Virus record (IMG/VR): IMGVR_UViG_2529292920_000016
Source of the DNA: a virus
Lineage: Duplodnaviria > Heunggongvirae > Uroviricota > Caudoviricetes
Direction: 5' to 3' (one strand)
Length of the DNA stretch: 32,229 nt
Shown: one piece after another, positions 13,200 through 14,558 of the stretch
Layout: every line of letters starts with the position of its first letter
Numbering within the stretch: position 1 is the stretch's first letter
Made by a program: the position numbers and the translations under genes
The notes under the pieces: model-generated
Database searches by the model: none
Told to the model about the DNA's origin: nothing
What the model saw: the letters and a program-made list of their open reading frames with translations, nothing else

Positions 13200-14400
13200 T
13201 TACGCGTCCTGCAAGACGCTTAACATTAATCTGAGGCCAATTTCATGCTAGACACATGTAGGTTAGCCTCTTACGTGCCGGAAGGCAAGGAGATGTATGG
13301 GTCCACCACATATTGCAATTTTTATTCTCTTTTAAAATATATTCCACGGGCGTCATTAGTGCGAGCGCCTTGTGGGGTCTTTTGCTGTTATACAGCACCA
13401 GATATTCCGCCAGCTTCTGGTTAAATAGCGCCAGATCTTCAAAGAGTAAAATCTCATTAAATTCAATAAACTGCTCTCTTAACGTCCGGTTAAAACGTTC
13501 ACAGATAGCGTTCATTTTTGGCGTGTAGGGATAGGTCCAGAGGTGTTTGATAGCGGCTTCCTGCAGCGTTTTGTCGAAGTTTCCCAGGAACTCTTTTCCG
13601 TTATCTGTGATTATCTGGCTGATACCGACCGGGAACAACCGGGCTGCGCGGCTGAAGAAGTGATTGACGATATCACTGTTGAGTGACGGCACAGCCAGCG
13701 CCAGCGCGTAATTGCTGCATTCGTCGATCATGGTGATGACATAGCGACGCAGTTCGCCCATTCTGAGCTCAATGGCGTCCATCCCAATGAGCTCACCTGT
13801 CTTTACCGGGCGGTAGTGCTTTGGCCTGCGGGGTTTGGCAGACCGCTTTTTGACAAGCAGTGCCTTCCCCCGCGATCCCAGACGCACAGGTATCATCCGC
13901 ATTTTATCATGTGCGGCAGCGATCATTCTGCCGATGGTGGAAACACTCGGACAGGCCAGATAGCGCTGTTCGCACCAGGGCTTCAGGCGAACAAAAATCT
14001 GCTCTTTACCGAGGTTCGGCAGCTCTGTCCTGAGGCGTCGAATCTCTTTCAGCACATCGGGATGCCAGTGTTTTTTTCGTCGCACCAGAGGTGCCTTACT
14101 GTGCGGGATTAGCCCCTCAGGTCCTTCCTTGTTCAGTAACTGACGCCACCAGTAAAGCGTGCGGCAGGACACGCCAAAGGCTTCAGAAGCTGCAGAAATA
14201 CCGTGTTTATCCCAGAAGTGCAGAGCCTTCATTCTCATTGTTGCTATATCAGCCATCACTGAAAGCCTCAACGCATAATCGGCCGTTTGGTAGTACTTAG
14301 GATAGCCAACCATCAGATGCTGCATTTGCATAGTGCAATCTCCCCTTACTTATCCGGAGGCAATTGCAATATCTCTGTGAACTTACACAGGAGAAGCAGG
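13200..14400 (-). mobile_element. Insertion sequence (IS481-like), boundaries approximate
   Basis: Transposase ORF fills nearly all of the element. Ends not determined: partially palindromic CTGTGAACTTACACAG at 14376-14392 and hairpin GCGTCctgcaaGACGC at 13203-13218 may mark the termini. Confidence 0.4.
13243..14331 (-). CDS. DDE (rve-type) transposase, single-ORF with N-terminal HTH, IS481-like
   Basis: 362 aa. N-terminal HTH segment, then DDE integrase core with D (GMDAIE), D (ITDNGKEF), E (ICERFNRTLREQ) and YNSKRPHKAL. RBS AGGGGAG before ATG at 14331. Confidence 0.75.
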   Translation of the reverse strand: MQMQHLMVGYPKYYQTADYALRLSVMADIATMRMKALHFWDKHGISAASEAFGVSCRTLYWWRQLLNKEGPEGLIPHSKAPLVRRKKHWHPDVLKEIRRLRTELPNLGKEQIFVRLKPWCEQRYLACPSVSTIGRMIAAAHDKMRMIPVRLGSRGKALLVKKRSAKPRRPKHYRPVKTGELIGMDAIELRMGELRRYVITMIDECSNYALALAVPSLNSDIVNHFFSRAARLFPVGISQIITDNGKEFLGNFDKTLQEAAIKHLWTYPYTPKMNAICERFNRTLREQFIEFNEILLFEDLALFNQKLAEYLVLYNSKRPHKALALMTPVEYILKENKNCNMWWTHTSPCLPARKRLTYMCLA

Positions 14401-14402
14401 CT

Positions 14403-14558
14403 ATGAAGCAGCAAAAGGCGATGTTAATCGCCCTGATCGTCATCTGTTTAACCGTCATAGTGACGACACTGGTAACGAGGAAAGACCTCTGCGAGGTACG
14501 AATCCGAACCGGCCAGACGGAGGCCGCTGTCTTCACAGCTTACGAACCTGAGGAGTAA
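14403..14558 (+). CDS. hok: Hok/Gef-family membrane toxin (type I toxin)
   Basis: 51-aa product MKQQKAMLIALIVICLTVIVTTLVTRKDLCEVRIRTGQTEAAVFTAYEPEE matches the Hok family pattern (TM helix, then LTRK.LCE.R.R.G..EVAAF.AYE). AGGAG RBS upstream. Confidence 0.8.
   Translation: MKQQKAMLIALIVICLTVIVTTLVTRKDLCEVRIRTGQTEAAVFTAYEPEE

Follow-up and report, generated by a model that had tools for sequence, protein, structure and literature searches.

The DNA considered here, a 32,229-nucleotide stretch (the whole of which is referred to below as the "window") from a virus of the Caudoviricetes represented by IMG/VR record IMGVR_UViG_2529292920_000016, contains a type I toxin-antitoxin locus of the hokD/sok type that is interrupted by an insertion sequence (IS) of the IS481 family resembling ISKpn28. 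The element entered by simple insertion, duplicated 5 bp of the target, GGAGA, and splits the locus at the Shine-Dalgarno sequence of the toxin gene hok. Comparison with about 40 other insertion sites in all shows a broader pattern, in which one end of the IS nearly always stands in a fixed register, 5 bp upstream of the -35 box of a sigma-70 promoter, most commonly the promoter of an antitoxin RNA. Considerable confidence can be placed in this reading as a whole, that is, in the simple GGAGA insertion, the fixed register with its preponderance of antitoxin promoters, and the silencing of hok inferred from them. The 1.8 kb around hok and the IS are 100% identical to DNA of Escherichia coli O127:H6 E2348/69 (NC_011601.1, 1281129-1282929), where the host element is a lambdoid prophage integrated beside potABCD, with rem downstream of hokD.

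The limits of the IS were set by alignment with independent copies carried on a ColV plasmid, between yegH and galF, and between chaA and kdsA in strain D1, in which similarity starts at TGTATGGG (13294) and ends at ...ACTTACACA (14389). The inverted repeats (IRs) at these limits are imperfect, about 27 bp long, with the termini TGT...ACA and a common core, ATATTGCAATT; the pair reads TGTATGGGTCCAC-CACATATTGCAA and TGTGTAAGTTCACAGAGATATTGCAA, and a repeat finder reports just an 11-bp perfect core lying inside the coordinates of the transposase open reading frame (ORF). GGAGA stands on either side of the element (13289-13293 and 14390-14394), and 13 nt separate the IS end from the hok ATG. The alternative of a 6-bp duplication, AGGAGA, was rejected: the terminal A is assigned to the IS because A follows ...ACTTACAC everywhere except at the old ColV-plasmid flank.

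Uninterrupted relatives of the locus confirm these limits. Removal in silico of the IS and one GGAGA gives a 538-bp empty site that aligns over 538/538 positions, at 99.8% identity, with uninterrupted hokD loci in at least 13 complete genomes, and an uninterrupted relative is found in about 3800 genomes. The isogenic empty site is that of E. coli FORC 064, which lacks the IS, has one GGAGA and shares the neighbors of the window locus (a DUF5677 protein, an integrase remnant, an AAA (PtuA-like) ATPase, an HNH endonuclease, hokD and rem). The left flank up to the junction is identical over 361 nt between the two, and the window differs from the empty site by exactly 1096+5 bp. An original prediction, made from the letters of the window alone, had recognized an IS481-like transposase ORF (13243..14331, minus strand), a hok-family ORF (14403..14558, plus strand) and a distance of about 70 bp between their start codons; all three stand, the two genes being divergent and their start codons 71 nt apart. 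Its placement of the IS directly upstream of hok was likewise sound, but the element occupies 13294-14389 and not 13243-14340. The mapping of termini and target-site duplication that it had proposed as a check gave the 1096 bp and the 5-bp GGAGA that the empty site confirms.

The IS separates two sets of components, with the hok promoter, leader, mok start and predicted Sok gene on its left and a copy of the Shine-Dalgarno sequence, hok, fbi and the terminator on its right. On the left, the Rfam "sok" model RF01794, which describes the leader in the hok sense, matches 13133-13299 with 112 bits (E=4e-26; gathering score 59), and 6 nt before this match begins is a hok promoter-like site. The complementarity between tac and fbi now spans the IS; the duplex GGGTGCTTGAGG/CCTCAACGCACCC is calculated at -26.4 kcal/mol, compared with -14.0+-2.9 for shuffled sequences, and 0/500 shuffles reached the observed value. 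The mok-like frame that opens at 13245 enters the IS and stops at 13424. In the rebuilt empty site, the same ATG is in frame with hok and yields a 70-residue product that extends Hok by 19 residues at its N terminus; this product is named MokW in phages mEp460 and HannyBb. In the R1 locus, unlike in this hokD-type locus, mok is an overlapping ORF out of frame with hok.

On the minus strand of the same left flank, the sequence from 13253 to 13175 folds at -30.5 kcal/mol into a long hairpin followed by CUUUUCU, and upstream of it stands TTGCCT-17-TAACCT, which we take to be the Sok promoter by homology to the R1/F hok locus. The homologous position of an F-type hok (locus L115) reads TTGCGC-17-TATCCT. 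The minus-strand promoter together with the hairpin and U-run are thus predicted to be the promoter and gene of Sok, whose start was placed about 7 nt after the -10 box.

On the right of the IS, the toxin gene itself appears normal. Its ORF matches Pfam HOK_GEF (PF01848) with E=6.8e-23, and the RefSeq annotation of E2348/69 labels it "hokD" beside an "IS481 family transposase" (WP_001178383.1). IS-linked hokD ORFs are intact at 15/15 loci examined, in six protein variants. The sole coding difference from the isogenic FORC 064 allele is V41A (window 14524, codon 41), with Val41 also found in K-12; the change could be drift after silencing or a plain polymorphism. The mok start and the hok ORF are nevertheless 1101 bp apart, and what remains is not a contiguous post-segregational killing unit. 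Judged by its sequence, the locus is an interrupted member of the hok family rather than a functional unit. That RefSeq presents the toxin ORF as normal with its leader 1.1 kb away bears on how hok loci are scored as "intact".

For expression, the arrangement suggests different fates for the two genes. Hok is most probably silent, because its promoter and the coupling to mok are lost and no sigma-70-like site reads out of the right end of the IS. Sok is presumably retained, its promoter core being untouched. Transcription from the hok promoter would enter the IS against the direction of the transposase gene. Transcripts of that gene, and the ribosomes on them, would leave the IS and enter the predicted Sok promoter and gene.

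In strain D1 a copy of the IS with 99.9-100% identity stands upstream of ldrA, about 13 nt away and in the same orientation as in the window. Since this places the element beside another type I toxin, public collections were scanned for its right end. The 109 occurrences found fall into 28 distinct right flanks, from metagenome, viral and Escherichia albertii contigs, and in 10/28 a Hok-family or Ldr ORF starts 3-24 nt from the IS end, always divergent from the transposase gene; an eleventh flank adjoins a hokD locus at its 3' end. Every one of the hok-like ORFs tested (14/14) matches Pfam HOK_GEF. The same scan of species-representative genomes returned only two E. albertii contigs.

Identical copies (100%) are present in at least 60 E. 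coli records, with up to 38 per genome (37-38 in strain IAL7255), and four places in E2348/69 match the IS. In 20 complete E. coli genome records with such copies, chosen without regard to annotation, type I toxin loci account for 13/20 of the sampled copies and other places for 7/20. The toxin sites comprise hokA (three), hokB (one), hokX in the cysH-iap interval (one), hokD of another prophage (one), a plasmid hok downstream of psiA (two), the ldr array beside bcsG (two), dinQ between arsR and gor (two) and a dinQ-like locus (one). The last is the second E2348/69 copy (L114; NC_011601.1 486808-487903), which stands beside a dinQ-like toxin between mnmH and ybbP; an AgrB-like RNA (Rfam, 53.6 bits) has its start 42 nt away from the IS end, and the register is occupied by TTGAAT-17-TATAAT. 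At the hokD site itself the IS occurs in about 55 complete genomes, and because distinct hokD leader alleles bear the identical IS at the same nucleotide, the distribution argues for repeated insertion, not one inherited event.

What these sites share is a promoter. Reading outward from the IS end, the order is a 5-bp duplication, TTGnnn, 17 bp and TAnnnT, with the transposase gene co-directional with the promoter; in the window it is TCTCC-TTGCCT-17-TAACCT, the -35 box being 5 bp from the IS end. The corresponding -35/-10 pairs at the register are TTGTAA/TATTCT at ldr, TTGATT/TAACCT at hokA, TTGCCG/TAAGAT at hokB, TTGCCT/TAACAT at hokX, TTGCGC/TATCCT at the F-type hok, TTGCAA/TAGCAT at dinQ and TTGAAT/TATAAT at the dinQ-like locus. 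The pattern extends to sites unconnected with toxins, among them sthA (TTGGCT/TACCAT), ybaQ (TTGTTT/CAGTAT) and an intragenic promoter-like site (TTGACT/TAACAT). Plasmid B of strain D1 (L113) has TTGCCA/GATAAT, and sites from metagenomes have TTGACT/TATCGT, TTGAAA/TAAATT, TTGACG/TATATA and TTTACT/TATAAT. Whereas the position of the IS is constant relative to the promoter, its distance from the toxin ATG varies, from 3 nt at hokX through 11-15 nt at hokB, hokD, ldr, hokA and plasmid hok to 239 nt at dinQ.

Of 24 distinct left flanks, 19 have TTG at offset 5 from the IS end, and practically none has it at another offset. When homologous loci are counted once, 14 target groups remain; 10/14 of these non-homologous targets have TTG at offset 5 (binomial P=6e-16 against local background) and 7/14 have TAnnnT at the 17-bp spacing (P=1e-10); these tests were framed after the pattern had been seen, and the margins are very large. 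The information profile of 18 non-homologous targets reads TTG.ca-17-TA...T with a weak TG before the -10 box, and the duplicated 5 bp carry no information. Among distinct simple insertions with intact duplications (n=20), TTG is present in 18, and 11 are at type I toxin loci. The same register is kept by relatives of the IS with 75-89% identity, among them true ISKpn28 at two hok loci on Klebsiella plasmids (L132 and L133).

At toxin loci, the promoter in question appears from annotated RNAs to be that of the antitoxin (Sok, Rdl or AgrB). Rfam places AgrB RNAs at 1076-1159 (-) beside dinQ and at 1071-1159 (-) beside the dinQ-like gene, and Rdl RNAs at 1095-1160 (-) and 2398-2463 (-) in two ldr loci. 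At all four, the 5' end of the RNA is 41-42 nt from the first IS base, in agreement with 5+6+17+6 plus a discriminator of 6-8 nt. The dinQ locus provides an additional distinction, as the IS there lies between the AgrB promoter and the LexA-box promoter belonging to dinQ itself, so that the toxin is disconnected from nothing. Targeting of a toxin Shine-Dalgarno sequence or of a leader hairpin was considered and rejected, given ATG distances of 3-239 nt and an uninformative duplicated sequence, and is further excluded by the non-toxin sites, which have just the promoter motif in common.

Table 1. Features of the interrupted hokD/sok locus, in order of their first position in the window
Feature	Position	Strand	Basis
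hok promoter-like site, TTGGCG-17-TAGAAT	13098..13126	+	consensus scan; unchanged in uninterrupted allele
hok mRNA leader, 5' part (tac, Sok target, mok-like start)	13133..13293	+	Rfam RF01794
tac element, GGGTGCTTGAGG	13133-13144	+	pairing with fbi
Predicted Sok antitoxin RNA gene	13180..13253 (ends approximate)	-	promoter position and fold
Transposase ORF, 362 codons	13243..14331	-	ORF list, Pfam, NCBIfam
mok-like start codon	13245	+	upstream ATG; ORF 13245..13424
Predicted Sok promoter: -35 TTGCCT (13288-13283), 17-bp spacer, -10 TAACCT (13265-13260)	13260..13288	-	
Left target-site duplication, GGAGA	13289..13293	.	single GGAGA in FORC 064 empty site
ISKpn28-like IS of the IS481 family, 1096 bp	13294..14389	-	alignment of independent copies and empty site
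Left inverted repeat, TGTATGGGTCCACCACATATTGCAATT	about 13294-13320		IR alignment
Right inverted repeat, AATTGCAATATCTCTGTGAACTTACACA	about 14362-14389		IR alignment
Right target-site duplication, GGAGA, the Shine-Dalgarno sequence kept before hok	14390..14394	.	sequence, empty site
hokD-type toxin ORF, 51 residues	14403..14558	+	Pfam HOK_GEF; RefSeq hokD
hok mRNA 3' region	14559..14653	+	terminator scan; fbi/tac complementarity
fbi element, CCTCAACGCACCC	about 14608-14620	+	tac complementarity
Intrinsic terminator and T-run	14627-14644	+	terminator scan

Similarity to other hokD modules stops at about 14653, near the end of the features listed in Table 1. Over the 3' untranslated region and terminator of hok, the Rfam model isrK gives a sub-threshold match (14567-14648, plus strand; 25.7 bits against a gathering score of 50) that probably reflects just two hairpins of the hok mRNA 3' end; the isrK, rsmX and snoRNA matches between 12800 and 15000 are all under their thresholds and were disregarded. 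Directly upstream of the hok locus is a Septu-type anti-phage pair, in which PtuA (10994-12367, plus strand) matches PADLOC model PDLC00283 with E=1.9e-165 and the HNH protein PtuB (12345-12983, plus strand) matches PDLC00325 with E=5.7e-82. The slot beside hokD that holds this pair in the window prophage holds relBE in the Qin prophage of K-12. Elsewhere in the same prophage, RefSeq annotates an IS4-like element, ISEc13, adjacent to IS200C (window about 23136-24509 and about 24647-25105), the two being placed between a SASA-family esterase gene and the holin/lysis cassette.

The transposase agrees with the family assignment in most respects. The ORF contains the Pfam domains rve, rve_3, HTH_32 and HTH_28, with a weak match to LZ_Tnp_IS481, and its best NCBIfam model is transpos_IS481 (221.4 bits, E=1.7e-65), followed by IS3 at 98 bits. 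Its closest named homologues, at about 80% identity, are Klebsiella proteins labeled "IS481-like element ISKpn28 family transposase". The traits of the IS481 family, namely a DDE transposase of the rve type in a single ORF without programmed frameshift, imperfect terminal IRs, a length of about 1-1.5 kb and a short direct target duplication, are all seen in this element of 1096 bp with its 5-bp duplication.

A peculiarity of this ORF is that it does not end within the element. The IS encodes 346 codons (14331-13294) and no stop codon, and the final 16 codons, like the stop, are supplied by adjoining DNA of the predicted Sok promoter and hok leader. The length of the product is therefore set by the flank, at 348-372 residues in E. 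coli copies and up to 573 in Klebsiella. Some of the flank-extended transposases carry spurious fused Pfam domains, and RefSeq flags many such copies as pseudogenes that are "incomplete, missing C-terminus", frequent calls for which the stop-less ORF accounts.

Not all copies of the element conform. Several lack a target duplication and have recombinant flanks (L118; L039, also designated S6; L126; L035, also designated S17; and L134-L140), and L118 and S6 share a right flank, GACCCGGAGAGTG..., but have different left flanks, which indicates recombination or inversion between IS copies. Such copy-to-copy recombination agrees with the 25-34-kb deletions found beside ISKpn28 upstream of hokG in IncHI5 plasmids (PMC6339943). 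Two older copies are also without a clean duplication: one fixed in ColV plasmids between iroB and an Rz/iss prophage remnant, which makes up 41 of the sampled loci, and one in the yegH-galF interval upstream of the O-antigen cluster.

The relBE-hokD locus of K-12 (MG1655 1645000-1647500) may record a further event of this kind. Its identity of about 98% to the intact hokD locus begins at AGGAGAAGC, so that the break in homology coincides with the insertion point of the IS to within one base (window 14389-14395), and K-12 hokD has no leader. In Klebsiella, an abundant left junction of ISKpn28 is the K-12-type relE-hokD spacer, ...TTGACAGGAGA, which ends in GGAGA; in the copies with this spacer on the left (L134-L136), the right flank is a different hok and the target duplication is missing. 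The K-12 relE-hokD junction may thus be the footprint of an IS-mediated rearrangement.

A number of observations weigh against the interpretation advanced here. Two of the 20 simple insertions (L094 and L128) lack the TTG, although L128 has a perfect TATAAT, and the 93%-identical degenerate copies of ColV plasmids and yegH-galF have no promoter motif. The copies without a target duplication, with their recombinant flanks, fall outside the simple pattern. Where ISKpn28 meets the K-12-type relE-hokD spacer, a widespread left junction, no promoter stands at the register; this junction either breaks the promoter rule or arose through other events. The sample of complete genomes (n=20) takes the arbitrary best place that BLAST returned for each record and is not a census. 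The transposase score of 221.4 bits falls 2.6 short of the curated NCBIfam IS481 cut-off of 224. With regard to silencing, the plus strand of the IS has no predicted intrinsic terminator, and for this reason transcription from the hok promoter may read through the IS to hok unless Rho stops it, leaving hok perhaps not fully silent. Finally, proteins besides RNA polymerase could also read a sigma-70 logo.

How the insertion affects hok has two competing accounts, both of which start from the original prediction. According to one, the IS has taken the place of the hok leader, mok and the Sok promoter, leaving a truncated hok like K-12 hokD. The 71 nt between the transposase start and the hok ATG do contain nothing leader-like, and K-12 hokD truly has no leader; however, the leader, mok start and predicted Sok promoter and gene lie unchanged directly to the left of the IS. 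The proposed comparison with intact loci for a missing 5' leader found nothing missing over the 361 nt identical in FORC 064, and the empty site refutes this account, which retains next to no credibility, because the sole difference is 1096 bp and the 5-bp duplication. The related suggestion of an IS inactivation like those in K-12 holds insofar as the IS interrupts the regulatory architecture of a prophage hok, but not in the sense that any part of the leader is lost. According to the other account, an outward promoter in the IS drives hok constitutively. IS elements of several families can drive adjacent genes, and hok, with its Shine-Dalgarno copy, is intact 13 nt from the IS end, as are hok ORFs at 15 loci. 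A consensus scan of the last 100 bp of the IS and inspection of 14300-14402 nevertheless found no sigma-70-like site on the plus strand at the right end, the TTGCAA hexamers there having ACAGGA or CTTATC at 17 bp. Moreover, unregulated Hok would be lethal, yet the junction is found in about 55 complete genomes, and at dinQ the IS lies upstream of a promoter under LexA control that dinQ already has. That IS481 of Bordetella is among the elements able to influence neighboring genes, as PMC3053399 indicates, counts in favor of such activation, which is nonetheless very improbable here.

Whether the pattern reflects target choice at all is a separate issue, as it might be produced by selection alone, with insertions that silence dispensable toxins surviving wherever they happened to fall. 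The larger number of ordinary, non-toxin promoter sites in high-copy strains would fit such an account, as would the other, unrelated IS elements in K-12 hok loci described in PMC7232551. But selection would accept any place in a 150-nt ORF, its promoter or its leader, in either orientation, whereas the toxin-linked copies all share a single orientation and a single nucleotide position with respect to the antitoxin -35 box, and 100%-identical copies of the IS occupy the same nucleotide in distinct hokD alleles. The insertion between dinQ and agrB separates nothing from the toxin, and the register is the same at sthA, at ybaQ and at intragenic promoter-like sites. Pure selection is thus improbable, if marginally less so than an outward promoter. 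Because of the dinQ case, the non-toxin promoters and the fixed orientation, a real target preference is favored, to whose excess of toxin loci selection probably also adds. The position of the IS at hok would follow from its preference for the antitoxin promoter as a target, a point absent from the original prediction.

If the preference is real, the question becomes what reads the target. The transposase itself could do so, for example through an HTH domain binding the TTGCAA core of its own IRs, with the likeness to a promoter partly coincidental; some IS families do target sequences resembling their own ends, both IRs contain ATATTGCAATT, and TTGC is the commonest form of the hexamer among the targets. 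This possibility deserves to be taken seriously but is on balance doubtful, as the second block, TA...T, stands exactly 17 bp away with a weak TG before it and no other informative position, which is how sigma-70 holoenzyme reads DNA, TTGA, TTGT and TTGG hexamers are used too, and promoter occupancy accounts more readily for the enrichment of strong constitutive antitoxin promoters. In the alternative, to which roughly even chances may be given, the transpososome recognizes promoter DNA as held and bent by the RNA polymerase-sigma70 holoenzyme, and the IS ends would be joined across positions -36 to -40 of the promoter. Guidance by RNA polymerase is preferred because the information in the target consists of the bipartite sigma-70 logo only and the promoters favored are strong and constitutive. 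Because insertions that silence the toxin, or leave it unharmed, are tolerated, toxin loci would then be enriched among surviving copies. The most inclusive proposal is that the ISKpn28 group uses sigma-70 RNA polymerase at the promoter as its landmark, with the IS end at about -41 in a fixed orientation, strong constitutive antitoxin promoters serving as preferred safe havens, the toxins of hok and ldr loci uncoupled from their leaders and rearrangements seeded; these last could include the deletions beside hokG and possibly the K-12 relBE-hokD junction. Taken in its entirety, it is tentative and has somewhat less than an even chance of being right.

Comparison with known elements helps to define what is unusual about this one. 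It resembles ISKpn28 in its length of about 1.1 kb, its single DDE transposase ORF, its terminal bases and the core ATATTGCAATT in both IRs, an 11-mer published as the ISKpn28 IR (PMC6101004), and true ISKpn28 copies occupy the same register in the Klebsiella plasmid hok loci L132 and L133. The two are about 75% identical in nucleotide sequence. ISKpn28, an ISfinder name for an IS481-family element of Klebsiella pneumoniae, is used in PMC6101004, PMC5343135 and PMC6339943, the last of which describes "Insertion of ISKpn28 upstream of hokG" in IncHI5 plasmids. ISKpn28 differs in that it has also been found inside mgrB under colistin selection (PMC6101004); a published survey of 452 Klebsiella genomes found its insertions to be about 80% intergenic. 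IS481 of Bordetella pertussis shares the transposase family, the single ORF without frameshift, the short IRs and the short duplication. It duplicates a 6-bp palindromic target, NCTAGN, in contrast to the 5 bp of no fixed sequence, with an asymmetric bipartite motif alongside, that are characteristic of the window IS.

Interrupted hok loci as such are familiar. In the hok loci of K-12 and B, where IS150 and IS186 have reportedly been found, an IS likewise makes a chromosomal or prophage hok abnormal while the toxin ORF stays intact; those cases involve other IS families and other positions, unlike the recurrence of one IS at one register in many hok, ldr and dinQ loci, with the antitoxin gene intact. 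The inactivation of K-12 chromosomal hok loci by IS elements is noted in PMC7232551, which cites Pedersen & Gerdes 1999, and a 2026 Hok survey mentions IS-related genes near some hok loci. By itself, then, the hokD locus is another IS-interrupted hok, a known phenomenon.

Recurrent and harmless landing sites at a fixed position and orientation are also known, from IS1397 and ISKpn1 (REP/BIME), elements of the IS110/IS621 type and Tn7 (attTn7). Their landmarks are repeats or unique attachment sites, whereas that of the window IS is a generic sigma-70 promoter. A parallel may be found in yeasts, where the transcription machinery directs retrotransposons such as Ty3 (also Ty1/Tf1) to sites a set distance away from promoters of RNA polymerase III or II. 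As with Ty3, the window IS has a constant position with respect to a transcription start (about -41), within insertion-tolerant DNA close to the promoter; the elements, enzymes and hosts are unrelated, and a role of the bacterial transcription machinery is only inferred here. Searches of the open literature, which did not extend to ISfinder or subscription journals, found no statement of a promoter-register target rule or of a preference for antitoxin promoters in the ISKpn28 group, but only ISKpn28 upstream of hokG and general comments on IS elements close to hok; an earlier description may therefore exist. As far as could be established, an orientation-specific preference for sigma-70 promoters with a 5-bp offset, above all for those of antitoxin RNAs, is a new form of a known trait, the target specificity of IS elements.

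What follows in practice for the window itself is limited: E2348/69 has an interrupted prophage hokD locus, and hok is probably silent. More broadly, the element offers a concrete way in which hok and ldr toxins, on chromosomes as well as plasmids, may repeatedly be cut off while their antitoxin RNAs persist. Insertion sequences are usually viewed as landing near-randomly or at short motifs, and the reading of a whole promoter would, if true, be a new kind of target choice, a bacterial counterpart of the integration guided by the transcription machinery that is seen in Ty3.

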